A stretch of DNA of 50,748 nucleotides from an uncultured Thermoplasmatales archaeon (GTDB lineage Archaea > Thermoplasmatota > E2 > DHVEG-1): contig CAZRMY010000001.1 of NCBI GenBank assembly GCA_964601295.1, positions 1 to 50,748 of the forward strand, given 5' to 3'. Positions 1 to 48,479 of this stretch are shown here, in pieces. The first letter of the stretch is position 1. The number at the start of each line of letters is the position of its first letter. The notes below the pieces were generated by a model. That model did no database searches and was not told the DNA's origin. It saw only the letters and a list, made by a program, of their open reading frames with translations. Position numbers and translations under genes: made by a program.

Positions 1-1131
1 ACCCGCATTCTCGATCGTTATCATACCACTCACTTCTGCACCAGGTTCAATATCAGTCCAGCTGAGATCAGCAGTTCCGTCAAGATCGGGTATCTTCGGT
101 ATTTCTTCAAAGGTTGCCATAATTGTTTTATCTGAATCCATGATTATCGTCTCGGGGTTTGCATCACCAGTTAAATCTCCACTCCATCCGATGAATTCCC
201 ATCCTTCATCAGGTATTGCTGTAAGTTCAACTGTTGTTCCTTCCTCATAAGTTCCACCGGATGGATTCAACTCGACAGTGCCATTACCAACGGGGTTAAT
301 AGTCAGATTGTAGTACACAATTTCTTCGAATGTGGCGGTAACTGCTTTATTTGAATTCATTATAATGGTTTCCGGGTTGATATCCCCTGAGAGATCACCG
401 CCCCATTGGACGAATTTTGCATCAACATCTGGAATCGCAGTCAATGTAACCTCTGTTCCACTACCATAAACACCGCCTGCAGGATCCAGTGTTACTGTTC
501 CAGGTCCAATTGGATCAACTGATAAGAAATATACCTCACCAACTTGTATAGATCCATTATTTCTATCTGGAAGAAAACCCATTTGGCCTCCTGCTGGACT
601 ATATTTCGTAACCATAGCCGGCGGATAAGATGCAAGTATTTTTAGCGGATAGATTCCATTAGGAGCTGTTGGCGAAATATCAACAATTAATTGACATAAT
701 AACTCTTCTTGAGTAGTTGAATACGGACCCGTTCCTATCCAAATTGCTCCTGCAGTCATATTCCCTAAAACATCCTCACCAGTTGGATTATATCCAGCTG
801 GTTGTCCATAACCATCGGAGAAATCAACACTCCAACTTGTAATAATATCTGGATCATAATTGATCACTATCTGCCACGCACCTAGCTGAAGCTCTCCAAT
901 ATCAAACTCACCGGTAATATTAATTACAACACACGTATCTCCTGCATCAACTTTTACATCATCAATAGTCATATAACCTGTGAAACCAAGAGCTGTTTGA
1001 TCTCTATTTTTTTGATTTGGTTTTTCAATATCGTTAACAAGAGCGGCTGCGCTTGGGATAATCAAAACCAAGACAACAGCAAGTGTTATAGCTGCCTTTA
1101 AAAATTGTTTCATTTCATTCACTTTCTTCAT
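1..1131 (-). CDS. Secreted surface protein, C-terminus cut by the window edge: signal peptide + cohesin-like domain + at least two divergent InlB-B-repeat-like modules
   Basis: Not in the ORF track because the frame runs off position 1. Reverse-complement reading from ATG 1131..1129 (second in-frame ATG at 1113) gives MKKVNEMKQFLKAAITLAVVLVLIIPSAAA.., 377 codons with no stop. Cohesin-like signature at about nt 538..978: DDVKVDAGDTCVVINITGEF..GAWQIVINYDPDII..LLCQLIVDISPTAPNGIYPL. Two ~65-aa units at nt 322..525 and 106..315: G(P/N)GTV.L.P.GG.Y..GT.V.LTAIPD..(F)..W.GDL.GD.NPETIIM.S.K...ATFEE. GGGGG motif 8 nt upstream of the ATG; TTTATATA-like box near 1172..1185. Confidence 0.6.
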   Translation of the reverse strand, partial: MKKVNEMKQFLKAAITLAVVLVLIIPSAAALVNDIEKPNQKNRDQTALGFTGYMTIDDVKVDAGDTCVVINITGEFDIGELQLGAWQIVINYDPDIITSWSVDFSDGYGQPAGYNPTGEDVLGNMTAGAIWIGTGPYSTTQEELLCQLIVDISPTAPNGIYPLKILASYPPAMVTKYSPAGGQMGFLPDRNNGSIQVGEVYFLSVDPIGPGTVTLDPAGGVYGSGTEVTLTAIPDVDAKFVQWGGDLSGDINPETIIMNSNKAVTATFEEIVYYNLTINPVGNGTVELNPSGGTYEEGTTVELTAIPDEGWEFIGWSGDLTGDANPETIIMDSDKTIMATFEEIPKIPDLDGTADLSWTDIEPGAEVSGMITIENAG

Positions 1132-1257
1132 ATATATTACCCCCTTATAGCATCCTAAGAATTTCCCCCAGTGAACCTAATTATATAAATAACTGTTAAT
1201 AAATAATATGGAACAACTATCGAATAAAAATTATAGCAAATTCAAAAAAAGGAGGAT

Positions 1258-2367: not shown

Positions 2368-2417
2368 GTTATCATTCACATTTCATCGCAAAGATACATA
2401 CCATCTACCACTATACT

Positions 2418-4060: not shown

Positions 4061-5584
4061 TTACCATGAAGGCTGATTCTGACGAAACTCAAAAAACACT
4101 ACAATAGGCAACACATCACTATCTAACTGCACCCCCTCACCATCAAAAGCAATCACCTCAACCTCATAAACCCCATGTGAAACATTAAATACATCAAATG
4201 CACCTACACACCCGTCACTCAAATTCTCATCAACAACCATATTTTCCCCGCTAATAATCAAATTCCGTGTATAAAACTCCACATAATCAACATTCTCACG
4301 CACATCGGCTTTAATCACCAACCGATCATTCAGCACAAGCGAAACATCAAGCAAATCGAATAAATACACATACGCCCATGATACATTCAAAAAATACACA
4401 TACCCTATCCGAATATTGGAAATATTAATCAATCTGCTCACTGACACATTCACCGATTCAGACCACACACTCTCCAACCCCTGCTCATCTCTAGTTTTCA
4501 CCCGAATACTATAATTACCCGTAGCCCAAGCATGCATACGCGACACAGAGTCACCTGAGGGAACATACTCCGTCCATCCACTATCCGTTCCATCACCCCA
4601 ATCAAACAAATACGCAACACCATCCCCATCAGGATCCGTGGTATTCGCAGTATACGTTTGACTCACCTGCGTCTTCACAATTGATGGCCCCCACAAAACA
4701 GGTTTCACCGGAGCACGATTAGACTGATTTGACGTGGTAAACACAAAAACCTCCCGAGTCCACTCACCACTCTTTGAATCAGTGACATTCACAAACCACA
4801 GATACTGTCTATCAAGCTCAAGCTGCTCAATGACACACTGCTTTGTTCCGTTATGCTCAAACACACCTGAACTATTACCCACATCCGGACACGTCTCAAT
4901 AGACCACGAAAAAAGATCCCCCTCAGGATCCTCAATCATCACCTCTAGAACACCAATATCAATACCTACATCTTCAGCATCATACACCGGCTGCTCATCA
5001 TACATCACGGGAGGATAATTCTTAGACACATTCACAAACACCGCCCCATTAAACACGGTCACACTAACCTGCCCACCCGTCTCATCAGATACCTTAACAT
5101 CCTGTAACACCAACGAAGACATACCAATAACGTCACGAGCGACAAAGCCAATCGTACAAAACACCCCCGGCTTGCTCACCGTAGAAGTAGCAGGTACTGT
5201 TAACCCATACACATCAGCAATCCATCCATCTGAATTATTGATAACACCGGGATTAAAAAACGTATTCTGCGCATCAGCAAACAAATCCCCTTCCTCAACA
5301 TACACTGCTTCAACCAATAACGGATCAAAAACAAACTGATCAAATGACACTCCATTAATTGGTACCGCGGGACTCACATACACATCAACCGTAAAGGAAC
5401 TGTTTACTAACACTGTTTGATTCCCTGGTTCAACTTCTACAATAGTCTCCTGCAGATTACTGTAAAAAATCTTTGTCACACGCGAATCAACACCAGAATT
5501 AAAAAATACCGAAAAACTAACTAACATTATAACAACAACTAAAGCTGGTGACAATAAGATTCTCGCTTGGTGTATCTTCTCCAA
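4061..5584 (-). CDS. Secreted/anchored surface protein: signal anchor + cohesin-like domain + FN3-like 'DPEGD..IETCPDVG' module + PKD-like 'DPDGD..DWGDG' module + unassigned C-terminal region
   Basis: The start codon is TTG (5584..5582), with GGGGG 9 nt upstream. Cohesin-like block at aa ~48-185 (nt 5030..5443): FTVDVYVSPAVPINGVSFDQFVFDPLLVE..GVFCTIGFVARD. FN3-like module at nt 4733..5017. PKD-like module at nt 4436..4720. Confidence 0.65.
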   Translation of the reverse strand: MEKIHQARILLSPALVVVIMLVSFSVFFNSGVDSRVTKIFYSNLQETIVEVEPGNQTVLVNSSFTVDVYVSPAVPINGVSFDQFVFDPLLVEAVYVEEGDLFADAQNTFFNPGVINNSDGWIADVYGLTVPATSTVSKPGVFCTIGFVARDVIGMSSLVLQDVKVSDETGGQVSVTVFNGAVFVNVSKNYPPVMYDEQPVYDAEDVGIDIGVLEVMIEDPEGDLFSWSIETCPDVGNSSGVFEHNGTKQCVIEQLELDRQYLWFVNVTDSKSGEWTREVFVFTTSNQSNRAPVKPVLWGPSIVKTQVSQTYTANTTDPDGDGVAYLFDWGDGTDSGWTEYVPSGDSVSRMHAWATGNYSIRVKTRDEQGLESVWSESVNVSVSRLINISNIRIGYVYFLNVSWAYVYLFDLLDVSLVLNDRLVIKADVRENVDYVEFYTRNLIISGENMVVDENLSDGCVGAFDVFNVSHGVYEVEVIAFDGEGVQLDSDVLPIVVFFEFRQNQPSW

Positions 5585-5719: not shown

Positions 5720-8700
5720 TTATTTTTTTGGAGGTTTACGTTCTAAATAGAGATAACCCGCCTTAAAGAGTACAACGACTACAATGACTATAGCTGCCAC
5801 TATCGCTAGAATTATCCAATACCATGATGTTTCTTCAGGTTCGCTTATCTCTGTTATTTCGCTTCCAATAATTGCAAATGATGATGTCCCGGGTGATATC
5901 GCTTGATAATAAACATACGTTTCATCTTCATTTAAGATGGTTGTTTCTAGTTCAATCCATTCTCCGTTATGATAGCGCATGAGTGTTACTGTTTCTTTAT
6001 CAATGTTGTTTTCCGTAAACCAACTTTGTGGTACTTTGAATTTGATTTTTAATGATTGAATATCGCTTTCGTTAACTGATTCATTACCAGCGATAACATC
6101 GATTTCAAGATAGGAATATACATGTTTATCGGCCTCTTCCGGAACTTGGTTGTCTGTATCTGTTACTTTTTCGATGGTTACTTTTACATCTGTTAGATCT
6201 GTATTTGCAGTGAACTCGATGCTGTCTACGCCAGTTCCCTCGGCGTCGTCTGATGCTGCTTCTTTGCTTTCACCGGTGGTGACATTACCCACCATTGCGA
6301 CGCCAATTACTTTAAATGAGTACACCGTTGATTGGGTGGTTTGAGAGGCAGAATCTGTAGCATCAATTGAGTATGTGATAGTTTTTCCAGTGGTAAATGG
6401 TCCTATGGTTGCAGTATACGTGTTGCCATTTGATATGCTCATAGTGGTTGTGTGTTCTGATCCATCATCATAGTAGAGATTTACAGATAGTAGGTTAGTG
6501 TCATCGGTTACTGTGGCATAAATGGTTATGGTGTCCTCTTTGGTTACTTTTGTTGGGGTGTGATATATGGATGATATGGTAGGTGGGTTGTCTTGTGTTG
6601 CTTCAGATATTGTGACTTCTGCGGTATCTGTTGCTGTTGAATCGGTATCATCGGTGACGGTCAATGTTGCTGTGTAGGTATCTGCAGAGCTATAGGAGTG
6701 CGTCGGGTTTTGCTCGGTTGAGCTGGATGCGTCACCAAAGTCCCAGCTGTATGAATACGGTGATGTTCCTCCACTTGCTGAGCCAGTGAACTCTATTGAA
6801 CTTCCGACGGTGCCCTCATATGGACCATTTGCATTGGCAGTTAATCCAAAGGTACCGTCTTGGGTGCCTTGTTGACCGTTGTTATTCGTTGTTTGGGTTT
6901 CGTCAGTGGTAAAAGTAGAATCAGTTGAATTCACGGAGCTTCCTGCTCTATCATAAGATATTACTCTGTAGTGATAGGTAGTACTTGCGGAAAGGCTGGT
7001 GAGGGTAATAGCATGTGAGGTAGCATAGGATCCTGTTTTGGTGTTTCCATAGGAACTGGTTGTCCCATACTCAACAGTTGCATTTGTTGTTTCATTGGTA
7101 GTCCAGGAGATAACCGCTGAGTTTTCATCAACACTATCTGATGAAGGACCAACCGTTATATTTGGAGCAGTGTTATCAACGGTTACATTAATTGAATACG
7201 AATTATTAATAGCAGTACTGTTTATCACATAGAGTCTAAGTATGTATTCTGTTTCTGCTACTAATGAGGTGTTCCAAGTGGCTAGAACACTTGAGCTAAC
7301 GGGAGAAGTTGAGTTTGAGATATGTGTCCACGTGGATCCATTGTCAGATGAATGGTTGACCCAATATTTGCTAAATGCTGGGCCAGAAGCAGTACCAGTA
7401 ATTGAGATAGTCTGCCGCACATACTCGTTATTTGAAGGCGCGGTAATTGATGCATTCATCGCAGCACTTACAATTGTGGTATATGCATCCCCTGATGCAT
7501 CATAGTCATTTTCGACATTTCCTGCATTATCGGTGGCAATTGATCTGAAATAGTAAGTGTTGCCGATGGAGCCATTGGTAAATTGGGAATATCCGTTTGC
7601 ATTTTGTCCTGTGAGCCATGTTGTCCAGGTTCCCTCAGAACCATTTTTTGTCTGTATAATGCAACTTGCTACATCACTTGAGGCATCTGATGATGTCCAG
7701 CTTACATTAACAGGTATACTATTATATTGAGATAGCGTGGTAATTTCTGAGGTCGGTCGTACTGTATCGATTAATATATGAGTAGTTTTTATTGACTCGG
7801 TGTTAGTTGCATTATCTTTGGAGAAGTATTTCAGTGTCCTATTGCCCTGTGAGGTAAATGAGATTGCGGTAGAATATTCATCTTCTGCTGTTTGTGTTGG
7901 ATCACTTCCATCTTTTGTATAATACGTTTTATATATGCCGCTGGTGTCATCCGTCGCATTTAATGTAACAGTTACAGGGGTAGTTGTTTGCCATCCTGAA
8001 GGGCCATCGTCAGAGGTTGATGGATCAGTGGTATCTACTCGTAAGGTTTCTGTATGGGTGTTTTCTATATTGGGTGTTGTGTTTTTATCATAAGAATAGA
8101 ATTTGATTGTCCATATGTCATCTCCTAGTTCATTTTCCCCGCCGATTGTAAATGGAGCAGCATACTGGGTTCTGTTTACATTAGAGTTGTTTGTTGGGTC
8201 GCTTCCATCGGTGGTATAATATGTTTTATTCACTCCTTTTCCATTGTCTGTTGGTGTAAATGTTACTGTTACGTCTGAGGTTTGCCATCCTGAGAGTATA
8301 TTATCTGTTGTTGTAGGTGGTTTATCATCAACGGAAATTCCGGTTTGACTGGTGACTGTCTGGTTTTCATTTGGCGGTGTAGCGGTATCTATAGCGGTCA
8401 CTGCGTAGTAGAAGGTTGTTCCATCTGTTGCGGTGGTATCATCATAGGTGGTTGTAGATCGGGTGGTAATGGTGGTTAAGAGTTGTACATTGCTAGAGGT
8501 TACATTGGTGAATGTGCTGCCTCTGCGGTATACTTTGTATCCTGCGAAATCTGGTGCGTTGGATTGATTCCATGAGAGAGTTATTGTGCTTTCAGCGTTT
8601 GCTTTATCTGTTGCACTGACCCCTTCTATTGCATTTGGTGGTGTGGTATCTGCGCCAGAGGAGGTGCTAAAGGTTTTATCAACTGAAGTACGTATATTCC

Positions 8701-11700
8701 CTGCTCTGTCTTGGGATTTTACCTGGTAGTGGTATGTGGTTCCAGATGAAAGACCTGTTAGTGTTCTAGTATGGGAGGTAACTTTTGTGGAGTTAGTACT
8801 GGTTGTTCCATAATCTGTTGTTGTTCCATATTCAATAGTGCTCGTGGATGATTCATCTGTGGTCCATGTAATCGTGGCACTGGTTTGAGTGATACCACTA
8901 CTTTGCACGTTAGATATAGAAGGCGCTGTTGTATCAAGATTGATAGTGTCACTGACGGCTGTTGCGGAGTTCCCAGCAAGATCTTTAACCTGGAAGTTAA
9001 CGGTTTTTGTTCCGCTACCTGATGAAAGCTGCCAATTTGCTTTTTCTTCGTTGTATGATTCCCAGCTTGACCAGTTGCTTCCGGAGTTGTTGAATCGCAT
9101 TTTCATATTGTAGGTATCAGATGCACTTAACGTAAGGGTGGCATTAGTGCTATTTGTATATGGTTGATCTGAGTTAATTGATATATCAAGGTTTGTAGGC
9201 GTGGTCGTGTCAAGTGTGATGTTATCTGAGTTCACATCTGATATTTTTCCTGCTCTATCTTTTACTTTAATATATACTGTTTTTATACCATTTGAAGAGG
9301 TAAGAGACCATTCTTTTGAGGTATTGTATTCTACCCAAGTTCGACCACTGAAGGTCATCTCATTAGCGATCATCATGTATTCGACCCCACTTGTAGCATC
9401 CTCTGCACTAATAGATAATGTTACACTTTGATCGTTTGAATAGGTAGCTGGTGTGTCACCTTTGCCGGTGATGGTGAGAGTGACCGATGATGGCTTGGTG
9501 GTATCAAGGGTTATACCATCACTTACCGCAGTTGCTATATTTCCTGCGGTATCTTTGACTTGATAGTATACGGTTTTTGATCCATCAGTAGAGGTTAATG
9601 TCCAATCGCGTGTACTCTGGAAATCCTCCCAGTCGGTATAATTTCCACCAGCGTTTTTAAATTGCATTTTTTTACTAGAGTTATCTGTTGCTGAAATTGT
9701 GGTCAAACTTACAGAGGTAGTGTTGGTATATTGATCATTATTTTCTATCTCAAAACTAACCCCCGTTGGTGCAGCGGTATCTATCACAATCGTTTGCGTA
9801 GTATCAGATTCATTTGCCTGGTTACCCGTTGCTTCGTCAGATACTTTTATTCGATAGGTACCATCAGATAATATATTAGTGTTGTCGTCTTTGCCATTCC
9901 ACGTCGCAGTATAGGTACCAGAGCCGAAGCTTGTTTCAGAGAGTGAAATTCCTGTTTTTTCCAAAACACTCGTGGCATTATAGATATTAAGATACAAATC
10001 CTGTCCTCCATCTGCACTGACCGTTATAAGCGTGGTATCTTTTGTTCCATCAGAATTTGGGCTAAATGGATCATTAGAAGCAGATATTTCACTTACTCCA
10101 CTTGCGGTGAGTGCTCCAACAGTTTCATTCTCAAAATCAGTGTAATTACATGAGGCGGTGGTATGTACATTACTTGCTTCATCCAAGAGCACCCAGGTGC
10201 CGCTAATATTTGCGCCTATGCGTAAATATCCAAGCATATATGGACCATCTGTCTCAGATGAATATATATTGTTTCCCTCGAAATACAGCGTGACAGTTTT
10301 TTCGCCAACTGTCCATAGTGTATTATGATTACTGTTGTTGCTATCGGAGGTAATCCATGTTGAACCACTACTTGAGTACAAATCTCCGTATACATCAAAG
10401 TTTGAGCTTGCAGACGTCACGTTAATAGTCATCGATATTGCCAGATATTCGTATTCATCATCTGCATCTGAATTTATGAATGATGATGAATAGTTACCCA
10501 TTATATAACCCGCAGCAGCACTAGTATTATGTTCAAAGTCAGTATAGGCATACGCAGCAGCAGTGGTGAACACATTCGTTGCCCGGGTTATCTCACCAAT
10601 ATCAGTTTTTGATACCGCAACATAAGATACAGTGTAGGGTCCATTAAGTTTCTTTGCATAAATCTTCAAGCCGTCAAATGAAAAATTGACCGGTCTTTCA
10701 CCAGTTGTATAACTTGTCGCAGGTATTTTTTTGCCGGTGATAAACGTACCATTTGGATCTACAAGTGCTGCAGATACAGAATATGAACCTGCTGTGTTAA
10801 ATGTGATGTTTGCGGATATATTAAGATAATCATATCCTTCATGTGATCCGGGACTATCATACACGCCTCCAAAGGTGACCTCACCTATTGATACGCTTGC
10901 TCCAAACTCATCGTAGCTATAGATGTTAACTAAATCAAATTCCCCAGAATCAATGAGATTCATGTCACTTGCTCTTCTCATCTCAATATATATTTTTTCC
11001 GGATCTTTCCCTGAAGCATTGATAAGACTCCCATCAAATGATAAGTTTACTTCAGTCTCCCCGTTTACCGTTGTTGTATTCTGACTCCAAGCAATATCTG
11101 TGTAATCACCAGCGAGCAACACTCCACTGTACTGGTATTCATTACTTATCGCGGAATATGTACTAATATTTACCTTTAAGTTACCATTGCTACTTGTATC
11201 ATTGGTACCGTTAATATGTCCTACTGGAGCAGAAAAATCGGTTGCATCGTAATCACTACTTGTTGTATATCTATCAATCGTATCGATCAAACTATCTGTA
11301 CCTACTTTTCGTAGTTCTAATCTCACATGATATGGTCCATCGAGTCCCTTGTCATAAATGTCTCCTCCATCAAAAAGCAGATTAAATGTTTGTACACCAC
11401 TTGGATTTACAGTTATCTCAGTTGTATTAAATGATATCCACTGCCAGCTATATCCTAATTCTTGATGTAGATCACCATTTATTTTGTATTTACCAGAAAC
11501 AGTTGAATTTACAGTTACATTTATTTTAAGATCACCATTTGAGATCTCATCTTCTGCTCCATCGATCATATCAACAAATTCAATTCCCGCACTCGCAAAA
11601 TCCGATGCATCATAATCATTTGTTTGATACTGCTCGATTATGTCGTATTGTCTCCATTCACCGGTGTTTGAACATAACTCTATTCGTATGTCATACGGTC

Positions 11701-14700
11701 CATCTATCCCTTTGTTTCTAATCTGTGCCCCATCAAACGTTATATTATACAATTGCACCCCATTGCCATTATGCGTGATGGTTTCTCCTTGCCAGTCTAT
11801 CCACTGCCATGAGCCTGGAGATTCCTTGTGAAGATCACATTGCAACCAGTATTCGTTACTACTACCTGTTGTAGAGTTTACTGCAACCGTGAGTTGAAGT
11901 CCGCTGTATGATGCTTCAGAGCCCACGCCCTGATCAAAGGGGTAGGTGTCATCATCAACCAGTGTGACAGTTGATCTCTGGAACTCATCGTGATTATATG
12001 AGCTGGTGCTATAGTCATCTATTGAATCAATCATCGTCCAGGTTGTCTCATTCATTATTTGTATACGCACTGTATATGGTCCATTAAATGCGCTGTCGTA
12101 TATGCGTTCTCCGTCAAATTTGAGTTTAACGACTTGTTCGCCGGTGCCATCAAGCTCGATTTGTTGCCCTTTCCATGTGATCCAGTGCCAGTCATAACCA
12201 CTTCTTTTCTCTAGATCTCCATGCATCCAATAGGTACCATCGCTAGCGCTATCAACGGTTACATTTAATTCAAGATAATTATATAAATCATCTTCGTCTT
12301 CAACTGTATCGTTACCCCAGTCTTCAACACTCACCAGTGTTACATCAGGTGTAGCAAACTCAGAGTAGCTATACTCATCTGTGGTATACTGCTCAATCAT
12401 ATCTTGCTCGGTCCACGTAGCAACATCTCTTAACTCAAGCCGGATATGATATGGCCCATCAATTTCACTATTTTGTATGGTCTGACCGCTAAATACTATC
12501 GTTATATTCCTTTCTTCATTTGCATCGAATTCATCATTTCCGTTGTTACTCTGCCAGGATATCCATTCCCAGTTCCAATTTGTTTGTTTGTGTAGATCTG
12601 CGCCAAGCCAATAGTAGCCTGATGTACTACAATTGACCGTCACATTAACTTGTAAATCACCGGCACCTGTTTTATAGTCAGACACGCTCATAATCTCAGC
12701 GCCAGATTGTTGAAATTCATCATAACTATACCCAGTTATTTGGTATGGTTCATAGCTATCGATCATTCTACCGTCTTGTCTAAGTTCAATTCTGGCTTTA
12801 TATGGTGAGTTTAACCCTTTGTTTCGTATCTTTACTCCATCAAAATGTAGTATCGCTAGGTCATCTGTTGCTTCTAGATACGTATAGGTTTCTGTGTTAT
12901 CGATCCACTGCCAGCCACTTGTATCTGAATACAACTCTCCTTCCAACCGATAATATCCGTCTGATCCAACGTTAATTGATACATTAACATCCAGATAATC
13001 ATATTTATCATCGTTATCGGTGTCGTTACCCCAGTTAGTAATACCACTGGTATTAATTGATGCAGCTGCTGCATCAAAATTATCATAACTGTACGCTGAA
13101 GTCTCATAGTCACTGATACTATCAAGTAATTTCCAGGTATCCGTATTGCGTAACTCAAGCCGTAAACTATATGGGCCATTAAGACCGCTATTTCTCATGA
13201 TTTCTCCCTCGAAGCGAATATTTATTGTTGATTCGCCGCTAGGGATACTTGTCCAGTTGTTTGTCCAGGAGATCCATTCCTCATTATAATTTGATTGTTT
13301 CCGAAGATCGGCGGTGAGCTCACAATTAACATACCCGCTCTCATCGGAGTTAACCGGTACATCAATTGAAAGATAATTATAGTTTCCATCTCCATCTGTA
13401 TCAACACCTGTGTCACTGATCTCGCTTTCATTAAATTCAATTGTTGAACCAATAAAATCAGATGATTGATACCCGCTGGATGTTGTTCCATCATATTTAG
13501 CTACACGTCTTCCTTCATCTAGATTTTCTACTTCCAGATGAATATTATATGGTCCATCACATTCAGATGAGCTTATTTGTTCTCCATTAAATTGGAGTAT
13601 AATTTGCTCTTCTGAATCACTTGAACTTACCGTTTTATATTCGTTTGTCCACCCGATCCAGTACCAATTGTTATTGGACTCCTTACTCAAATCACACCAG
13701 ATCTCATAATTTCCCGGATCTGAAAATGTAATATTTGCTGTAATGTTTAGGTATTCATAATCGGGACCACCAGTGTTGTTGTACCCCTCATCTGAAACGG
13801 ATTCAATAGTTACGCCACCAGAGCTAAAATCTGAAGTGTTATATGTATTAATTGATTCATTGTTAAAATGATCTAAATCTGACCATTCACCGGCTCTTCT
13901 AACCCATACATCTATATCAAATCGTGTACCTGTTGCAAATGTACTTTGCATGCTCTGACTAAGACTTTGAATACCACTAAGTATTTCAATTGAATCAAAG
14001 TATAACTGAATCTCTTGAGGATCTGAATCTTGGATTAGCTGCATATTCTCCCATTGACCCGCAATAAAATTCCAGTCGTTACTACTTTCTTTATGTAAAT
14101 CCCCTCCAATAGAGTATGTCCCAGTTTCATTTACCTGAAGAGTTACATTAACTACAACATTTCCATCACTTGCTCTCTGATAATCATCATGATCATCGGT
14201 GAAGTAAATCGGCCGAATATCTCCTAATCCGGTGAAATCATAGAAATCTGTTTCATAGTTGTCTAAGTTATCTAGCATATTCCAGTTTGAGTCCATTATT
14301 TCAAAGGAAATAGTATATGGTCCGTTGTAACCTGCTGTCTGGATACCTGATATATCAAAAGATAAGGTTACATCCTGTTCACCTGCAGATGAAAAAGTAA
14401 TTTCTTCTTCCGTGTCTGCAATCCAAATCCAGTTATCCCATCCACCTTGATTTATTACTTTATGTAGGCTCCCGTGCACATGATATGAACCTGTTTCACT
14501 TGAGTTTATTCTGAGAGTTGTATATAGATATTGGCTATCATTTGAGTCACTTGGGTAGGAGTTATTCTCGATAAATCGTACTGATGGTTGTTCAAAATCA
14601 CCCAGTGAGTATGAGTTATCTGTGGTAAAATCAAGGTAGTCAAGTTCTGAGCCACCTAATTGTCTGAGCCATAAATTAACACCATAATACCCTTCTTGAC

Positions 14701-21046: not shown

Positions 21047-21063
21047 CCACCTTTTTCCCTCAA

Positions 21064-25504: not shown

Positions 25505-25508
25505 GATT

Positions 25509-30702: not shown

Positions 30703-30709
30703 TTTTTTT
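30703..30709 (+). terminator. T7 run downstream of pheS (overlaps the stop codon of the convergent heliorhodopsin gene)
   Basis: ttttttt at 30703..30709, 48 nt after the pheS stop. Confidence 0.35.
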
Positions 30710-31502
30710 ATATTGGACGGAGCGTGCCAGCGTAGACCTGCCATGCAAGTGCAGATTTTGCGACAAGACTTAGGATAATATATGCCCGTTCGCCGTAAAG
30801 GTAGTCCCGCCATTTACCGATTTTTTTGTACTGCAGAACCATATTAATGGCAAATATGTTGAAGAAGATCGCAATGGATATGAAGATATAATAGACAAAG
30901 TCAGGTATGCTGCCTTCTGAGGCAATAGTTGCTCCTCCGAGATACAGGGCTATGACTACCCATGGTATGACACCTGCGAATACTCCAAAATAGTAACTTG
31001 TCCAGTTGGTTTTTTGTGTGGTCTGGTTGTGTAGCTCCATCATTAAACCAAATAGGTTCATGCAGGCGTTGATAGCAAAAATTGGGATAAGCGTTCCTAG
31101 ATCGTAGATCCCAACAAGCATGGCGATTACTACGATCATAACTGATGAGCTAAACGCATATTCGAACCATCGTGCGTAGTTGATATGTCTTTTTAGGTTT
31201 TTTACATACCAGGGGTATCCCCATGGAGACGAAAGTGAGAAGTGTGCGATAGCTGAAATAAGGAGGAACAGCGCAACTAATGGTGCAATGGTGATTTCGG
31301 CAAGAGTACTTGTTGTAAGACCAAGGCTTTGAGTCGCGGTATTGTATTCAAGGTAAGATAATGTGATTGGCAGATGAAAATCTGTGCTGAGATACAGCAT
31401 GAGACTAAACTGTATAAAATGAAAGCATCCCATGATAAAGTTGAATATACGTAAACGGTGAAAGACCAGCGGTTTTTCCATTGTCTGTTGAATGGAGGCC
31501 AT
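30708..31502 (-). CDS. Heliorhodopsin (7-TM retinal protein, inverted-topology rhodopsin family)
   Basis: 264 aa with seven hydrophobic segments. Family blocks recalled from HeR 48C12/TaHeR: FHFIQ (His28), SAIAHF (His87), RWFEYAFSSSVMIV (counterion Glu114), VLQYKKIGKWRDYLYGERAYIILSLVAKSALAWQVYAGTLRP (Schiff-base Lys249, codon AAA at 30756..30758). Confidence 0.88.
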   Translation of the reverse strand: MASIQQTMEKPLVFHRLRIFNFIMGCFHFIQFSLMLYLSTDFHLPITLSYLEYNTATQSLGLTTSTLAEITIAPLVALFLLISAIAHFSLSSPWGYPWYVKNLKRHINYARWFEYAFSSSVMIVVIAMLVGIYDLGTLIPIFAINACMNLFGLMMELHNQTTQKTNWTSYYFGVFAGVIPWVVIALYLGGATIASEGSIPDFVYYIFISIAIFFNIFAINMVLQYKKIGKWRDYLYGERAYIILSLVAKSALAWQVYAGTLRPI

Positions 31503-34369: not shown

Positions 34370-36373
34370 ATGAGGTATACTATGAGGAAAAAAACAAGCC
34401 ACATAATTACAACTTTAGTCATCGTGTTAACAGTAATGACCACGGGCGTTTCTGCATTTATTAACCATCAACAAACACCCACATATCATCCAATTATACA
34501 TACCAATTATAGTGATGGGATTGATGATATAGGCTGGTATACCAGTATCGCAGTAGATGATACCAACTTGCCACATATCAGCTATTACCACTACACCCGT
34601 GGTAATTTGAAATATGCGAGCTATAATGGAGTAGAATGGAGTACCGAAGTTATTGATAAAGAAGGTGACGTAGGACGATACACGTCTCTGGTGTTTGATA
34701 GTGAAGGGAACCCCCATATCAGCTACTACGATAAAACAAACGGTGATCTCAAATATGCATATCACAACGGATCGGACTGGGTAACCACCTGCGTTGACTC
34801 TAATGGAAACGCGGGTTTATTCACAGCTATTACTACTGATTCAAATAATAACCCGCATATTAGTTACGTTGAATATGGCACTCATGAGTTACGATACGCC
34901 TATCGCGATGAAAACACCTGGGTTATCGACCATGTAGACGACGATGTCGGCTGTGGAGAATACTTCAGTGATACTACCTCTATTCAACTTGACTCCGAGG
35001 ACTATCCGCATATATCCTATCTAAGCAGACCAAATTTTGATCTCAAATACGCATACTATAACGGCACCAATTGGATAAAAACAATAATTGATACATCTAA
35101 CAACATTGGTCAATACTCTTCGTTGCAATTAGATACCTGTGGCCAACCACATATCAGTTATGGTGACTGGACCAATTTTGATCTCAAATATGCGTATTAC
35201 AATCAAAGTGGATGGACTATTGAAACAGTAGACGCCCCAGGTGACGTACGCAAATGGACGTCTCTAGTTCTCATTAACGATTTCCCCTCAATAGTTTATT
35301 ATGATTACTTTGATGGTGACCTTAAAAAAGCATCCTTTGATGGAGGTAACTGGCAGCGTACAATACTTGATGCAGAAGGAGCGGTAGGATGTTTCAACTC
35401 CGCAATTGTAGACACTTTAAAAAACTTGCATATAAGTTATTACAGCTGGAGTAATAAGAGCCTGAAATATGCACAGGTCCACGATGATATTGTTACAATT
35501 CACACAATAGAAAACCCAGTAACAGAGGATCAACTTGACCAACAACAATACAACTGCTGCGGATACTCCTACGGCATTTTTGATACCATGCCCATTGCAC
35601 AGGGGTTCATACCTACAAATTCTCTTCTCACTCGAGTTGAACTTATGCTGCTCAGACATGATGTACCCGGGCCGCTCACTGTATCAATTCGAGAAAACCT
35701 TGATGGAAAGGATTTAACCAACTGTACACTCACCTCAGAACAAATTGCAGAAGATATGTCCTGGAAACTATTTGATTTCTCAGATATTACCGTTGAACCC
35801 GGCACCACCTATTATATCGTCTGTACATCCTCGGATACCCATGATAACAGCATGTACTGGTGGTATTTTGATATCAATAATCCCTATACTCTTGCAGATG
35901 CATGGATAAAGAGCGGTAATTGGAAAAAACTCACTGACTCTTCCTTCCCAGGAATCGACCTCGGATTCAAAACATATGGACGTGCATCTTATGCGCCTAG
36001 TAAACCCGATATCACCGGACCAACCAACCCAAAAGTACGAGAGGAATGTGAATACCAGCTCAAATCTTATGATGAAGATAATCACTCCCTGTATTATACC
36101 ATTAAATATGGCGATGGCTATAATGAAACCATAGGTCCATACATATCTGGTGAAGAGATAACAATAACACACAGCTGGGAAAAAAGAGGAACCTATTTGT
36201 TACAAGTACAAGCCGTTGACTCCACAAAAGCAGAAAGCGACTGGGGAACCCTTGAAATAACTGTTCCCAAAAATATCCCCGACTTTATCCACCGGGATAC
36301 ACCATACAATAGGTATATCACTCACTTGATATCTATGATCCACCAGCTTATTAACCTAAGCAGGTTCTCCTAG
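34370..36373 (+). CDS. Secreted/anchored 7-bladed beta-propeller protein (unnamed 'PHISY..DLKYA' repeat) + unassigned middle domain + PKD-like C-terminal module
   Basis: Seven ~46-aa repeats: D..(G/N).PHISY......DLKYAY.NG..W....(V/I)D..G..G.Y(T/S)SL. The first strand (GWYTSIAV) precedes repeat 1, as in a velcro closure. PKD-like module at 35989..36274. The start may be ATG 34382 (GAGGT 6 nt upstream). Lies 17 nt after the papain gene. Confidence 0.65.
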   Translation: MRYTMRKKTSHIITTLVIVLTVMTTGVSAFINHQQTPTYHPIIHTNYSDGIDDIGWYTSIAVDDTNLPHISYYHYTRGNLKYASYNGVEWSTEVIDKEGDVGRYTSLVFDSEGNPHISYYDKTNGDLKYAYHNGSDWVTTCVDSNGNAGLFTAITTDSNNNPHISYVEYGTHELRYAYRDENTWVIDHVDDDVGCGEYFSDTTSIQLDSEDYPHISYLSRPNFDLKYAYYNGTNWIKTIIDTSNNIGQYSSLQLDTCGQPHISYGDWTNFDLKYAYYNQSGWTIETVDAPGDVRKWTSLVLINDFPSIVYYDYFDGDLKKASFDGGNWQRTILDAEGAVGCFNSAIVDTLKNLHISYYSWSNKSLKYAQVHDDIVTIHTIENPVTEDQLDQQQYNCCGYSYGIFDTMPIAQGFIPTNSLLTRVELMLLRHDVPGPLTVSIRENLDGKDLTNCTLTSEQIAEDMSWKLFDFSDITVEPGTTYYIVCTSSDTHDNSMYWWYFDINNPYTLADAWIKSGNWKKLTDSSFPGIDLGFKTYGRASYAPSKPDITGPTNPKVREECEYQLKSYDEDNHSLYYTIKYGDGYNETIGPYISGEEITITHSWEKRGTYLLQVQAVDSTKAESDWGTLEITVPKNIPDFIHRDTPYNRYITHLISMIHQLINLSRFS

Positions 36374-43249: not shown

Positions 43250-44299
43250 ATGACACAAATTGGAATTGTAAGCTATGGAGCCTATATACCGCGTCTACGT
43301 ATAAAAACCGAAGAAACTGCGCTTGTTTGGGGAAAAGATGGCGCAACAATTAGCCGAGGGTTAGGTATACTGGAAAAAACTGTGCCCTCAATTGACCAGG
43401 ACACCGCGACCATCAGCGTTGAAGCCGCGCGATCAGCGCTTAAACGTTGTACAATTTCACCTGCAGATATCGGCGCGATATACATCGGAAGTGAATCACA
43501 TCCGTATGCTGTTAAACCTACGGGGACTATTGTGGGTGAAGCAATAGCTGCAACACCAGATTTAATGGTAGCAGATTTTGAATTTGCTTGTAAAGCGGGT
43601 ACCGCTGCGATACAAGTGTGTACTGCTCTGGTCAAATCAGATATGATCAAGTATGGTCTTGCAATCGGTGCAGATACTTCTCAAGCAGCACCAGGGGATG
43701 CATTAGAGTTTTCTGCTTCAGGAGGGGGAGCTGCATTTATCATTGGCAAACAAAATGTTATCGCAGAGATTAATCACACTTATTCATATACCACCGATAC
43801 TCCTGATTTCTGGCGACGGGAAGGACGTAAATATCCTGAGCATGGAGGACGATTTACCGGTGCACCCGCGTATTTCAAACATATTTCCAGTTGCGCGCAA
43901 AAACTCATGGAAAAAGCAGGGGGCACTCCTTCAGATTACCAATATGCAATATTTCATCAGCCAAACGGGAAATTCCCTGTGAATGTTGCTAAGAAACTTG
44001 GATTCTCCAAGGATCAAATCAAACAGGGGCTTCTCTGTCCATATATAGGAAACACGTATTCAGGTGCAGTTCCTATTGGTCTTGCCTCAGTATTAGATGT
44101 AGCTAAACCAGGAGATAGAATTTTTATTACCAGCTATGGTTCTGGTGCGGGGAGCGATGGTTTTGATATCACTGTTACCGATGAGATAACTAAGCTTGCT
44201 CGCGTTAATGCACCAACAGTCTCTGAACTTGTAGAAAACAAAGAATATGTCGATTATGGGACATATGCAAAATATCGTGATTTATTATATTGGGAGTGA
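43250..44299 (+). CDS. Hydroxymethylglutaryl-CoA synthase (archaeal type)
   Basis: 349 aa. [35 protein letters not shown] (active-site Cys), [15 protein letters not shown]. First gene of the thiolase/DUF35 trio. Confidence 0.88.
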
Positions 44300-44306
44300 T
44301 ACTAAA

Positions 44307-45473
44307 ATGAGAGATGTTGCGGTTGTTGGGGTTGGTATGACCCAATTTGGTGAATTATGGGATAAATCATTCAGACAACTTACTGCAGAAGCAGGAGCGA
44401 AAGCCATCTTAGATGCAGGCGTTGAAGGAAAAGAAATTGATGCTATGTATATTGGTACTATGAGCGCTGGTAGATTTGTAGGCCAAGAACATGTGGGCGC
44501 ACTTGTTGCAGATGCCAGTGGATTTGCCCATGAACACATTCCAGCAACTCGAGTGGAAGGCGCATGTGCATCAGGTGGACTTGCAATACGTGAAGGCTAT
44601 ATGTCAATAGCTGCTGGAGTTAATGATGTTGTGGTAGTTGGGGGTATTGAAAAAATGAATGATGTTGGTGGCACAGCAGCCACAGAAACCTTGGTTACTG
44701 CAGCGGATCAAGAATGGGAGGCATTTTTTGGTGCTACCTTCCCAGCTATTTATGCGATGATGGCAACCCGACATATGCATGAATATGGGACGACTCGTAA
44801 ACAACTCGCTCAGGTGGCGGTAAAAAACCATGCAAACGGTGCATTAAACCCTCACGCACAATTCAGACGAACACTCCCTCTTGAAACAGTATTAAATTCT
44901 ACGACCGTTGCTTACCCGTTAACCCTTCTTGATTGCTCACCAGTCAGCGATGGTGCTGCAGCAGTAGTGCTCTGCGCAGCTGATAAAGCCAAAAAATATT
45001 CAGATAAACCGCTTAAGATACTAGGATCTGGGCAGGCATCAGATACCTTAGCACTCCATGCACGAGATAATATAACAACTATTGATGCTACTGTACAAGC
45101 CGCTCAGATGGCATATAAACAAGCAGATATTAAACCATCAGACATACACCTTGCTGAAGTCCATGACTGCTTCACCATAGCAGAAATTGTAGCAATTGAA
45201 GACCTCGGGTTTGTCAAAAAAGGCGAAGGCGGAAAAGCAGTTGAACAACATATAACAACCTTAGACGGTACACTACCTGTTAACCCAAGTGGTGGTTTGA
45301 AAGCCAAAGGTCATCCTGTGGGCGCCACTGGCGTTGCTCAAATAGTTGAAATAGCCTATCAACTCAGAGAAGAAGCAGAGAAACGCCAGGTAAAAGATGC
45401 AACCATTGGTTTAGCACACAACGTTGGCGGATCGGGTGCCACCTGTACCGTTCACATCCTGGAGGCGATGTAA
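44307..45473 (+). CDS. Acetyl-CoA C-acetyltransferase (archaeal thiolase)
   Basis: [24 protein letters not shown] (nucleophile Cys), EVHDCFT, NPSGGL.AKGHP.GATG. I moved the start from the track's 44247 (which overlaps HMGCS) to ATG 44307, 7 nt after the HMGCS stop and preceded by GGGAG. Confidence 0.88.
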
Positions 45474-45475
45474 TC

Positions 45476-45895
45476 ATGCCAAGTGGAGTAGCACGATTCT
45501 GGCGAGAAATTCCCCAACGATATAATCTCATAGCTAACAAATGTGGTGCGTGTAATCGTATTTATTTTCCTCCACGGGAATCATGTCCATATTGCCGGCG
45601 TAAAAGTATCGGTAACATGATGGAAACCAAGCTGAGCGGAAAAGGAGAAATTTTTTCCTATACGATAATTCATGTGGCCCCTAAAAACTTTGAAAAACAG
45701 GTCCCATACGCAGTAGCGATTATCCGTTTAGATGAAGGCCCGCGGTTAACCGCTCAGATAGTCGATACTCCGTTAGAGGAAATAAAAATTGGTATGCGTG
45801 TCGAGTCAACATTCCGCCGTATCCAGGATGAAGGATATACCGGCGCGATATACTATGGTTATAAATTCAAAAAGAGCGCTGAAAACAAACCCTAA
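45476..45895 (+). CDS. DUF35 OB-fold/zinc-ribbon protein (scaffold subunit of the archaeal thiolase/HMG-CoA synthase complex)
   Basis: CGACNRIYFPPRESCPYC zinc ribbon followed by an OB-fold-like GEIFSYTIIHV..AVAIIRLDEGPRLTAQI. Starts 2 nt after the thiolase stop. Confidence 0.85.
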   Translation: MPSGVARFWREIPQRYNLIANKCGACNRIYFPPRESCPYCRRKSIGNMMETKLSGKGEIFSYTIIHVAPKNFEKQVPYAVAIIRLDEGPRLTAQIVDTPLEEIKIGMRVESTFRRIQDEGYTGAIYYGYKFKKSAENKP

Positions 45896-45908
45896 TAAAG
45901 ATTTATTT

Positions 45909-48479
45909 TTATATATCTAAAATTGTTTGGTATATACCGCCACCATAACTGCCTGCATACAACACTATCCCTTCTTTTTTATCACTTACTGCTACAGATG
46001 AGATATGTGTAACACGCATACCAGTAGGAGGGATCAACTCCCAACTCATCCCACCATCATCACTGAGATACACGCCTTCACCCCAAGTACCAGCAAACAA
46101 CACGGAACTCTCATTTTCTCTACCTAAAATTTCCAATGCCCGAACTGGTACATTTGGCATACCGGAATTAATAGAAAACCAGGTTTCACCCAAATTTATA
46201 CTCTTAAAAACACCATACTCCGTGTCAGCAATATAAATACTATCTGGGTTATCAGAATCACATACTATATCCATAATATGACCATCAGAAAAACTAACAT
46301 CGACCTCGACCCATGTTACACCGCCATTAGTGCTTTTAAATACACCATTACCATAAGTTCCGGCAAAAATCACCTCAGAATCTAAAGGATGTACCATCAG
46401 TGAAACCACATGAATCCCCTCACTTGTTAACCCTGTTTCACTCCATGTAAACCCCCCATCAATTGATTTATACACACCATTTAACGTTCCAATATACACG
46501 ATATTATCATTTAACTGATCAACAGCGATTTCTTCTACACACCTATCAAACATATCATCCAACCCAGCAACAAGATATAACCAGGATTCACCACCGTCCT
46601 CGCTTCTAAAAAACCCGCCTCCATTATTATAAGAACCAAGATATATAACGTCAGGATCACCGGGATGAAACGCAATCGCACTTATATCACCCAAGGGGAT
46701 ATCCGGGGGTACCCATCCCTGCCACTCACTCCCGCCTGTATTGCTCTTGTATAATGCACAATATCCAAACATTGCCCCACAGAAAATATTATTTGTATCA
46801 AAAGGAGAAACCATAACCTCAGTGATCAATGTAATCGGAAGACCCATCACCTCCCAGGAGACTCCTGCATCAATAGAAGAATATACCACATCAAAATGCG
46901 ACGCAAACAACCGTTCCCGATCACCTGCACTAATCTCTAAACCTATCACCCATCTATCTACCGGTTCACCAGCACTATCAAAATGATATACCGGTAGCTC
47001 TCCCAATCCACTCCACTCATCCCCACCGGTTACAGATTGAAACACCCCATCTCGAGTTCCCACGTATACATGCAAGGCATCATCATGAGTAACAACAATT
47101 GAGGACACCTGTAAAGAGGTTAGCCCCATGTTCTTCTCACTCCAACTACCACCATTTACACTCTGAAAAACACCATTAGACAAAGTTGCACAATACACCA
47201 CCGCGCACTCGACATTATTAATACGAGAAACACCTGCCGAAATATCTAACACTGCTACATCTGTAAGCCCCTCATTCATCCATGACCAGGAAGTACCGCC
47301 ATTTATACTCAGATATATCCCTGATCCTTGTACACGACCATATACTATCTCAGAATCTAATGGATCAACAATTACTTGTCTTACACCGGGGTTAACAAGA
47401 TAGTGTAACAATGACTGCCAGGTGGCACCACCATCATAGCTCACATACAAAAAATACCCATGCAATAAATCCAGGCCACAGGCATACACCGTCTGGTTGT
47501 TATTTGGATCAATCGTTATATCAATAAATTTACACGCAGAAAAATAAGGGTCCAAATGCTCTGCCTGCAATGCGATCCAACTATTCCCTCCATCATAACT
47601 TTTCAAGAGTTCATTGCCAACCCCTGCATAAAGTATCTCTGGTTTATTTGGATCTAACATCGCGGCATAACAAGCACCAGATACAAGCATTTCCCACGTA
47701 TCACCCGTATTCTGACTTTTGAATAATCCTTCTGGTAACCCACTTCCACCATTGTTACCCACATAGACTAGTTCACAATTCGTAGGATCGCTCAACAAAA
47801 CTTCTGGCCCTCCTCCTTCAAATGGCCCATATGACACCCATTCACCAGGTGGATTACAACACCAGCGAACTGGTGAGGGACTCTCAGGGATAAATACATA
47901 ATTTATCAACCAAACAACATCATCAATAGACACAGAAAAATCCCCACCGGCATCACCCAAACATAACGGATCCGGCGGCATACCTCCATTAAAAATATAG
48001 TTTATCAGAAACACAATATCACTAACATTTATCATGCCATCCCGGTTAACATCTCCACAGTCAGATTCAAAAGCATTTGATGTCAAAACAAAATCATATG
48101 TCGTGTTCTCACCAATACTTAGCAGTACCCACTCAGAAAGATATCCCAGTTTACTTACCGTGACATTTTTTAAACAATAACAGAGGGGGATATTAGTAAT
48201 ACTATAAAATCCCGATGAATCCGTAACATCTTCCTCGTACGTACCATGAAATGAAACACGAACACGGGCATCACCTATAGGGTTTAATGCGGTATCCATC
48301 ACAAAACCGGAGAGAGTGCCATTAAAACTATAGCCGTTTAAATAAACTAGTTCTGTTTCTATATCAGAACGGTTTTTATGAATAATGCAAACTTCCATAC
48401 TCATGCAAATCTGCGATGCCAAAAGTATGCAGCAAATCGTTATCACTACTACATTAAACCTCTTCCATGTTTGTATCAT
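45909..48479 (-). CDS. Secreted dockerin-bearing double beta-propeller protein with 13 BNR/Asp-box motifs (GH74/sortilin-Vps10-like fold)
   Basis: Signal anchor. CarboxypepD_reg-like block (GFVMDTALNPIGDARVRV..SGFYSITNIP). Dockerin at nt ~47890..48060 (GDVNRDGMINVSDIVFLINYIF..GDAGGDFSVSIDDVVWLINYVF). 13 S-x-(D/N)-G-G-x-(T/S/E)-W motifs. The track start (48503) is TTG; I prefer ATG 48479, preceded by GGGGGAGG with a 5-nt spacer. Confidence 0.75.
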   Translation of the reverse strand: MIQTWKRFNVVVITICCILLASQICMSMEVCIIHKNRSDIETELVYLNGYSFNGTLSGFVMDTALNPIGDARVRVSFHGTYEEDVTDSSGFYSITNIPLCYCLKNVTVSKLGYLSEWVLLSIGENTTYDFVLTSNAFESDCGDVNRDGMINVSDIVFLINYIFNGGMPPDPLCLGDAGGDFSVSIDDVVWLINYVFIPESPSPVRWCCNPPGEWVSYGPFEGGGPEVLLSDPTNCELVYVGNNGGSGLPEGLFKSQNTGDTWEMLVSGACYAAMLDPNKPEILYAGVGNELLKSYDGGNSWIALQAEHLDPYFSACKFIDITIDPNNNQTVYACGLDLLHGYFLYVSYDGGATWQSLLHYLVNPGVRQVIVDPLDSEIVYGRVQGSGIYLSINGGTSWSWMNEGLTDVAVLDISAGVSRINNVECAVVYCATLSNGVFQSVNGGSWSEKNMGLTSLQVSSIVVTHDDALHVYVGTRDGVFQSVTGGDEWSGLGELPVYHFDSAGEPVDRWVIGLEISAGDRERLFASHFDVVYSSIDAGVSWEVMGLPITLITEVMVSPFDTNNIFCGAMFGYCALYKSNTGGSEWQGWVPPDIPLGDISAIAFHPGDPDVIYLGSYNNGGGFFRSEDGGESWLYLVAGLDDMFDRCVEEIAVDQLNDNIVYIGTLNGVYKSIDGGFTWSETGLTSEGIHVVSLMVHPLDSEVIFAGTYGNGVFKSTNGGVTWVEVDVSFSDGHIMDIVCDSDNPDSIYIADTEYGVFKSINLGETWFSINSGMPNVPVRALEILGRENESSVLFAGTWGEGVYLSDDGGMSWELIPPTGMRVTHISSVAVSDKKEGIVLYAGSYGGGIYQTILDI

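Follow-up and report, generated by a model that had tools for sequence, protein, structure and literature searches.

Cohesin and dockerin modules on a Thermoplasmatota contig: probable parts of a genome-wide, non-cellulosomal docking system

When two cohesin-like segments and a dockerin are encoded on the same stretch of archaeal DNA, do they belong together, and to what? The question is raised by a 50,748-base window, the entire contig C1 of a Thermoplasmatota genome bin (2.06 Mb in 224 contigs, here designated C1, C16, C47 and so on; 90% complete with 2% estimated contamination), in which three minus-strand genes encode the proteins P0001 (1..1131), P0002 (4061..5584) and P0003 (45909..48503). 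An earlier note on this DNA had seen a cohesin-like domain in each of the first two proteins and a dockerin joined to a propeller in the third, and had read the window as the parts list of a non-cellulosomal surface assembly. The observation is confirmed, all three modules being real, and its interpretation is partly supported. We propose, with a probability of roughly two in three, that the three modules are parts of a non-cellulosomal cohesin-dockerin docking system that extends over the genome of this archaeon.

The two cohesins of the window

P0001, the gene of which is cut off at its 3' end by the contig end, is a secreted cohesin carrier comprising, in that order, a signal-like N-terminus (hydrophobic segment at residues 6-24), a cohesin of the subfamily that we call type B, two Flg_new_2 repeats (118.6 bits in Pfam) and the start of a C-terminal Ig-plus-tail module. 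At its truncated end, the final 39 residues correspond to the beginning of a C-terminal module found in paralogues encoded on C54, C87, C16 and C53 (E 7.9e-13). The cohesin (residues ~51-197; 541..981, minus strand) scores 13-14 bits (E 0.06-0.11) with the Pfam Cohesin model (PF00963), under the curated cut-off of 24.1 bits. The same segment is matched (E 1.7e-11) by a profile built from five paralogous cohesins (encoded on C150, C34, C80, C10 and C53; four of them clearly over the Pfam cut-off and that of C53 borderline), and its identity with the cohesin of C53 is 33% (E 9e-20). Its AlphaFold2 model (pLDDT 84.7, pTM 0.82) is a jelly-roll beta-sandwich of the cohesin type, and the best 46 matches of this model in a Foldseek search of the Protein Data Bank (PDB) are all solved cohesins (E 6e-9 to 1.5e-4; TM at most 0.8).

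P0002 comprises an N-terminal hydrophobic anchor or signal (residues 4-22), a cohesin of the second subfamily (type A; residues 48-184; 5033..5443, minus strand) and PKD/Ig domains (PKD_4, 28 bits in Pfam), and it has no membrane segment at its C-terminus. Its cohesin segment does not match Pfam Cohesin even at E values up to 10, and neither this segment nor that of P0001 has anything over cut-off in the Pfam and NCBIfam scans. Searches of the PDB with the single sequences gave matches that were weak but to cohesins, the four best sequence matches of the P0002 segment (E 0.03-0.1) being such proteins. A profile of three Pfam-positive cohesins encoded on C16 matches the P0002 segment over its full length (E 3.4e-31) and, in the whole genome, matches besides it the cohesins of C47 only. 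The identity of the segment to the five C16 and C47 cohesins ranges from 41% to 57% (57% and 49% for the C47 pair). Searched exhaustively, a set of 1.84 billion representative proteins yielded 1299 homologues of the domain, many of them with two to five copies per protein, and 39 of the 40 near outside homologues scanned match Pfam Cohesin (best E 1e-38). A word-indexed homologue search with the same region returned the query itself only, and the comparison with species genomes found no close relative.

Judged by homology, for which P0002 has the stronger evidence, and, for P0001, by modelled fold, both segments are genuine cohesins that the Pfam model overlooks. The earlier note had named failure of the Pfam Cohesin model as the sign of generic Ig-like domains: the failure did occur, for both segments, but the Ig-like reading does not follow, because transitive homology and fold both indicate cohesins. 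Pfam-only censuses would undercount such systems, since the model misses genuine cohesins, including both copies in the window. As to chance, Dockerin_1 matches occur in two of 14 control genomes and Cohesin matches in two to four of the 14, depending on the E-value limit, and with so few controls matching, the cohesin and dockerin matches are not due to chance.

The dockerin and the double propeller of P0003

P0003 (45909..48503, minus strand) comprises a signal or anchor, a beta-sandwich resembling an X module, a dockerin with four cysteines and a double propeller of the GH74-like fold. The two-repeat dockerin CGDVNRDGMINVSDIVFLINYIF...CLGDAGGDFSVSIDDVVWLINYVF, placed by the earlier note at ~47890..48060, occupies residues 149-203 (47895..48059) and passes the Pfam Dockerin_1 model (PF00404; 29.8 bits, E 7e-7, and 34.2 bits in the whole-genome scan; curated cut-off 22.9 bits). 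The complete four-cysteine module extends over residues 149-216 (47856..48059, minus strand) and is laid out as a cysteine, repeat 1, a cysteine, repeat 2 and then PSPVRWCC. A profile of the other dockerins of the genome matches it with an E value of 1.6e-25, and all 14 positions that are invariant in an 18-member alignment are retained, including C1, C34, C68 and C69. A dockerin consists of two repeats of ~22 residues, each with a calcium loop (D-x-N/D-x-D-G-x-x-x-x-x-D) and a helix. Repeat 1 of P0003, DVNRDGMINVSD, has a canonical loop; repeat 2, DAGGDFSVSIDD, keeps positions 1, 5 and 12 and has a glycine at calcium position 3. The helices are modelled, with low confidence, at residues 160-172 and 193-204.

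Both flanks of this dockerin are as the earlier note described them, according to Pfam and AlphaFold2: a CarboxypepD_reg-like beta-sandwich (PF13620, 37.3 bits; residues 63-141; 48081..48317, minus strand) precedes it and a propeller with 13 Asp boxes follows it. The sandwich may serve as an X module, because residues 55-168 of P0003 align to chains of Clostridium thermocellum CipA that comprise an X module and a type II dockerin (2b59_B, 3kcp_A and 5g5d_B; E 2e-5 to 1.5e-4).

The BNR/Asp-box propeller (residues 220-864; 45912..47846, minus strand) has six strict SxDxGxxW motifs among its 13 Asp boxes and is modelled as 14 blades in two seven-bladed propellers (pLDDT ~90). GH74 enzymes make up all of its best 25 Foldseek matches (E 3e-31 to 9e-25, ahead of a next class that begins at ~1e-18), at TM values of ~0.6-0.66 (target-normalised) and 16-18% identity. 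A profile of the 43-member family matches GH74 chains with E values of 1e-38 to 1e-50, ahead of the dispase autolysis-inducing protein (7e-23), Ycf48 (1.5e-15) and sortilin (7e-15). Fold and family-level similarity thus agree in making the protein a GH74-like double propeller, as had been suggested. The NCBIfam model 'F510_1955 family glycosylhydrolase' scores 163 bits, under its cut-off of 175.

The catalytic residues were compared by means of profile alignments and the titles of PDB mutant entries. The first catalytic aspartate of GH74 is, we presume, the D of RTDIGG, a numbering consistent with the mutant title D60A, and the second is indicated by the title D465N. In the profile alignment, RTDIGG falls on the family consensus 't-n-g-g-G', and its aspartate on N251 of P0003 (YVGNNGG) and on an asparagine in the orthologue described below. 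The second aspartate aligns one residue away from D538 (SHFDVVY), and the 43-sequence alignment contains no near-invariant acidic residue. With an asparagine aligned to the presumed first catalytic aspartate and no near-invariant acidic residue in the family, the propeller is probably not a canonical GH74 hydrolase, though GH74-like in fold; a role in binding appears more likely than hydrolysis.

We also considered and rejected a sortilin-like or Ycf48-like propeller, on blade number and on scores far weaker than those of GH74. Sortilin/Vps10 proteins have one ten-bladed propeller followed by a 10CC module. P0003 does match Pfam Sortilin-Vps10 (88.6 bits in five stretches), but its 14 blades form two propellers, and its family profile gives 7e-15 for sortilin versus 1e-50 for GH74, which disposes of the sortilin-like identity that the earlier note had kept among its options.

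Cohesins and dockerins in the genome and beyond

Searching the whole genome with profiles of its own modules, we found 37 reading frames with a dockerin match, 35 of which, on 23 contigs, contain the full two-repeat module. These dockerins share a cysteine directly before each repeat, a proline-rich linker and an invariant P-V-x-x-C-C, with CC or CxC following the module in 31 of the 35. Nearly all (32/35) are C-terminal, ending within 30 residues of the stop codon, and three are internal, that of P0003 included. Cohesin modules number 17 in 14 reading frames, namely six of type A in three proteins and eleven of type B in as many reading frames. The window, with one of the 35 full dockerins and two of the 17 cohesins, is therefore not the parts list that it had been taken for.

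The multi-cohesin scaffoldins that characterise a cellulosome do exist here, outside the window, as a C16 reading frame of at least 5176 residues with three cohesins and a C47 reading frame of 2057 residues with two. A second dockerin type (NWDxNxD...DL..VS..Y / DVDNNG...DL..VS.HYxE), missed by Pfam in this genome, lies 19-36 residues upstream of four of the six type A cohesins (residues 3163-3217 and 3966-4020 of the C16 reading frame; 716-770 and 1450-1505 of that of C47), thereby forming repeated dockerin-cohesin units in these giant proteins; P0002 bears a lone, N-terminally anchored type A cohesin with no dockerin upstream. We rejected this second type as a cargo tag, given that it occurs solely inside the two scaffoldins. 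Five proteins of the genome are cohesin-dockerin fusions: three small ones, encoded on C80, C150 and C34, consist of a signal, a type B cohesin and a dockerin, and two C25 peptidases of C10 each carry a type B cohesin and a dockerin.

P0001 belongs to a set of paralogous carriers with a signal, a type B cohesin, Flg_new_2 repeats, an Ig domain and an amphipathic tail ('...SLATP...ERFPLLE'). The C-terminal module of these proteins (an Ig-like domain, '...SD[YW]..L.V.[LT]P[KR]N' and the amphipathic helix ERFPLLE) is shared by 12 reading frames, four of them cohesin carriers, with sites on C54, C87, C16, C53, C137, C82, C56, C68, C103 and C15 and at 1..117 (minus strand) of the window; it may represent an anchoring or sorting tail that has gone unrecognised. 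By eye, similar-looking tails, possibly of the same module, end the products of 32736..34352 and 34370..36373 in the window.

The nature of the cargo was assessed by scanning the 25 larger dockerin proteins against Pfam, the two C10 proteins being identified as C25 paralogues by BLAST. Ten dockerin proteins are peptidases (C25, C1, C11, M14, M28 and S8), one of which, a fusion of a C25 gingipain and a PAD_porph deiminase (C4, 15606..22196, minus strand), ends in the four-cysteine dockerin. The other cargo comprises NosD/beta-helix proteins, an RHS protein, a carbohydrate-binding module (CBM) of family CBM96 with PKD, DUF7901 with GEVED, Laminin_G, a PQQ-like propeller and Ig-rich giants. No glycoside hydrolase domain was found in the 25 proteins scanned, in keeping with the non-cellulosomal nature claimed for the system, and no classical CBM for cellulose binding is present in the first 3000 residues of the C16 scaffoldin, which contain Laminin_G, DUF2341 and FG-GAP domains. 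The peptidases of the window carry no dockerin, C1 having a single dockerin match.

Each of 40 related genomes, 24 of which belong to the same family, has zero to five dockerin matches, versus 37 here. Dockerins occur in 11 of the 40, cohesins likewise in 11, and both in eight (Fisher p 2.7e-4, uncorrected for phylogeny). Used as a query, the P0003 dockerin matches 36 places in its own genome and no dockerin of the 40 relatives. The closest relatives of the module are found in metagenome-assembled genomes (MAGs) of Zixibacteria, Ignavibacteria, the 'FCB group' and Phycisphaeraceae (loci L067-L146), where copies are many per genome, 55-70% identical over ~70 residues, placed at the extreme C-terminus and laid out as here (CGD...C..D...PV..CC). 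In the literature that we searched, we found no published account linking dockerins with Zixibacteria or Ignavibacteria. The nearest homologue of P0003 itself is archaeal: an orthologue of 44% identity in the Thermoplasmatota archaeon CSMAG_2286, consisting of a signal peptide, a four-cysteine dockerin, CC and then the propeller.

The CSMAG_2286 genome (1.5 Mb) has 29 Dockerin_1 and 13 Cohesin matches in Pfam and, by our own profiles, six type A and 18 type B cohesins. The second dockerin type recurs there upstream of type A cohesins, with 58-65% identity (L165 and L166), one copy scoring over the cut-off of Pfam Dockerin_1. In five bacterial genomes where the four-cysteine dockerin abounds, Pfam cohesins number 6-10 each; the type B model matches one to three of these per genome along its full length (28-36 bits), and the type A model matches none. 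Three bacterial genomes tested for the second dockerin type do not contain it. The kit is patchy within the phylum, yet recurrent in independent assemblies. The presence of the four-cysteine class in unrelated sediment bacteria points to a shared, possibly exchanged, cross-domain toolkit for surface assembly.

Archaeal cohesins and dockerins outside cellulosomes are already established, and the kit described here belongs to that known kind. Chadwick et al. 2022 (PMC9012536) report the Archaeoglobus fulgidus proteins AF2375/AF2376 (citing Peer et al. 2009) and, in ANME-1/ANME-2 archaea, expanded cohesin-dockerin sets with scaffoldin-like proteins. As in these archaea, secreted proteins bear cohesins, dockerins or both together in the absence of cellulose metabolism, and, as in ANME, scaffoldin-like proteins bear several cohesins. 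Here, however, the host phylum is Thermoplasmatota, the dockerin has four cysteines and belongs to a class common to FCB-group bacteria, the scaffoldins contain repeated dockerin-cohesin units, and the cargo is dominated by peptidases, whereas the common ANME cargo named in PMC9012536 is binding proteins of ABC transporters.

The clostridial cellulosome (C. thermocellum CipA) shares with this system the plug-and-socket logic, the multi-cohesin scaffoldins and, in P0003, a beta-sandwich that immediately precedes the dockerin and aligns with the X module; Xgh74A likewise joins a GH74-like double propeller to a dockerin. The differences are an archaeal host without surface-layer homology (SLH) or sortase anchoring, no glycoside hydrolase in the cargo scanned and no classical CBM on the scanned part of the C16 scaffoldin, a dockerin placed N-terminal to its cargo in P0003, and the apparent lack of the first GH74 catalytic aspartate. 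Compared with the GH74 xyloglucanases (5fkq, 2cn2, 6p2l and 1sqj), P0003 has the same two seven-bladed Asp-box propellers but an asparagine aligned with the presumed first catalytic aspartate, 16-18% identity and a family devoid of a conserved acidic pair. The four-cysteine dockerins of Zixibacteria, Ignavibacteria and other FCB-group bacteria, which are uncharacterised and known as sequences only, resemble those described here in layout, terminal position, richness in copies and the presence of cohesins in the same genomes; they differ in having bacterial hosts, and the bacteria tested lack both the type A cohesins and the second type of dockerin. What is notable in the present genome is the peptidase-rich cargo, the cross-domain dockerin class, the dockerin-cohesin repeats of the scaffoldins and the N-terminal dockerin on a GH74-like propeller.

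Docking, its rivals and the neighbouring genes

From these data we propose the following mechanism. Secreted proteins carry a dockerin (paired EF-hand calcium loops and two helices) that would be stiffened by four cysteines and would plug non-covalently, as expected from the behaviour of the family, into the cohesin beta-sandwiches of carrier proteins. Such binding has been demonstrated for an archaeon, Archaeoglobus, according to PMC9012536. The predicted carriers are the giant multi-cohesin scaffoldins, the small cohesin-plus-dockerin adaptors, and single-cohesin proteins with an N-terminal signal or anchor and the shared C-terminal tail. The outcome would be cell-associated assemblies rich in C25, C1, C11, M14, M28 and S8 peptidases, which would suit an organism living on detrital protein. 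In this scheme P0003 would be cargo, with its dockerin unusually N-terminal, and P0001 and P0002 would be carriers with cohesins of different subfamilies. P0003 would most likely dock on a type B cohesin, that of P0001 being one of eleven candidates, because the four-cysteine dockerin travels with type B-like cohesins across genomes. P0002 may receive the second-type dockerins of the scaffoldins themselves, because type A cohesins travel with this dockerin type fused upstream. Two orthogonal plug-socket pairs would be the simplest reading of this pattern, although a weakly supported one.

Several points weigh against the proposed docking system. The type B pairing leans on bacterial matches that are weak (28-36 bits) and come from only five genomes, and both cohesins of the window score under the Pfam cut-off. 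Loop 2 of the P0003 dockerin lacks the usual asparagine or aspartate at calcium position 3, and P0003 has IDD and VV where the majority has VSD and AV, at positions expected to face the cohesin; because of these differences, its dockerin could bind calcium less strongly or fit another partner. In the AlphaFold2 model of P0003, the N-terminal 217 residues are of low confidence (unreliable at 33-217). The shared C-terminal tail has no NCBIfam match, nor does Pfam give one there when the C53, C54 and C87 proteins are scanned in full. The module counts are approximate, as the bin is 90% complete and fragmented into 224 contigs and as duplication in the assembly or strain variation may account for the near-identical dockerins of C14 (7979..8140) and C175 (18..179), one of which lies in a very short reading frame where a contig ends.

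Four rival explanations were weighed against this docking system. The one closest to the earlier note, namely that P0003 docks specifically on P0001 and/or P0002 of the window to form a cell-bound complex beside the window peptidases, draws on the presence of three real modules on one contig and on the co-occurrence of the P0001 subtype with the dockerin class of P0003. We consider it unlikely: 17 cohesin modules and 35 dockerins in the genome leave low prior odds for a partner in the window, the genes lie 40-47 kb apart with housekeeping genes between them, and the window peptidases, beside which the complex had been placed, are without dockerin. The proposal that both cohesin proteins receive P0003 thus holds better for P0001 than for P0002, docking on the latter being the less likely half because only the type B subfamily co-occurs with the four-cysteine dockerin elsewhere, the type A subtype being absent from the bacteria that have this dockerin. 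A further explanation dispenses with pairing altogether and makes the dockerin a metal- or calcium-stabilised C-terminal tag (for export, envelope or glycan attachment, or stability) and the cohesin-like domains Ig spacers. The C-terminal position of 32 of the 35 dockerins and their invariant PV..CC tail do look like a sorting signal, both window cohesins fail the Pfam model, and binding has never been tried for most non-cellulosomal dockerins. An obligatory C-terminal signal is nevertheless disfavoured, because internal copies would not be tolerated, and three dockerins are internal, that of P0003 being conserved in the orthologue of 44% identity. Cohesins and dockerins moreover co-occur in the relatives (p 2.7e-4), in the second archaeal genome and in bacterial genomes, and are fused in five proteins here, which makes an absence of pairing improbable.

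Still less probable, by a little, is that P0003 is an active GH74-type glycosidase whose dockerin displays it at the surface in the way that Xgh74A of C. thermocellum is displayed on the cellulosome. The top 25 fold matches of P0003, the profile matches to GH74 (E 1e-38 to 1e-50), the 163 bits of the NCBIfam glycosylhydrolase model and the position of D538, within one residue of the second catalytic aspartate, would all suit such an enzyme; N251 and its counterpart in the orthologue at the presumed first catalytic position, a 43-sequence alignment without a near-invariant acidic residue, an NCBIfam score short of 175, the 16-18% identity to GH74 and the lack of any other dockerin-bearing glycoside hydrolase here do not. 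Finally, the dockerin proteins might come from bacterial contigs misbinned with an archaeal genome, a suspicion fed by the bacterial origin of the closest module relatives (Zixibacteria, Ignavibacteria) and by the slight separation of the dockerin and cohesin contigs on one axis of tetranucleotide composition. Contig C1, however, joins the same dockerin class to archaeal genes, namely those for a DRG-type GTPase (62-65% identical to proteins of Thermoplasmatales and 'Methanobacteriota' MAGs), L7Ae, an archaeal-type PheRS alpha chain, an adenosine-specific kinase and heliorhodopsin. GC content is uniform, the distance of these contigs to the bin centroid is no larger, the estimated contamination is 2%, and the same modules, along with the orthologue of P0003, are present in a Thermoplasmatota MAG that was assembled independently. 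The independent assembly, the uniform GC content and the archaeal genes of C1 together leave bin contamination a very small chance.

If the proposed docking system is real, it bears on a question of sediment ecology. We infer that the host is a benthic member of the Thermoplasmatota resembling Thermoprofundales/MBG-D, which are reported to encode extracellular C11, C25, M14 and M28 peptidases (PMC6461988). Benthic Thermoplasmatota are thought to mineralise buried protein via such secreted enzymes (PMC6461988), which raises the question of how a slow-growing cell retains the peptidases and their products nearby. In the Thermoprofundales genomics literature retrieved, dockerins are unmentioned. 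The finding of the same peptidase families with dockerin tags in a cohesin-rich genome suggests a testable answer, tethering in the style of the cellulosome.

A bolder version, which as a whole we regard as speculative and somewhat unlikely, holds that two Thermoplasmatota lineages have assembled a cellulosome counterpart that is centred on proteases, a 'proteolysome', with two orthogonal plug-socket pairs. One pair, the cysteine-clasped dockerin and type B cohesins, would be shared, and probably exchanged, with co-resident Zixibacteria and Ignavibacteria; through the other, the second dockerin and type A cohesins, scaffoldins would polymerise or attach to membrane-anchored cohesins like that of P0002. 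Such a structure would keep enzymes of the gingipain, clostripain, papain, subtilisin and carboxypeptidase types on the cell surface, thereby providing a physical basis for the degradation of detrital protein by abundant benthic archaea.

The remaining genes of the window include many for secreted proteins, among which are two C25 peptidases, a C1 peptidase, NosD-like proteins and a surface protein of 5124 residues. The last (5720..21094, minus strand), encoded directly upstream of the type A cohesin gene, has membrane segments at its N- and C-terminus, many CarboxypepD_reg, PKD and fn3 domains and unassigned repeats, and neither a dockerin nor a cohesin. Directly upstream of the P0003 gene, 48644..50746 (minus strand) encodes a large secreted protein of at least 700 residues that has no match in Pfam or NCBIfam and is 48% identical to a paralogue on C15 (13790..17629). 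The heliorhodopsin gene (30708..31502, minus strand; PF18761, E 2.6e-98; nearest solved structure 6is6, E 1.9e-93) lies among genes for surface proteins. At 43250..45895 (plus strand), genes for an HMG-CoA-synthase-like protein, a thiolase and a ChsH2-type protein with a rubredoxin-like zinc ribbon and OB-fold are consecutive, the gene order being that of the archaeal acetoacetyl-CoA thiolase/HMGCS complex, which stands at the start of the mevalonate pathway.

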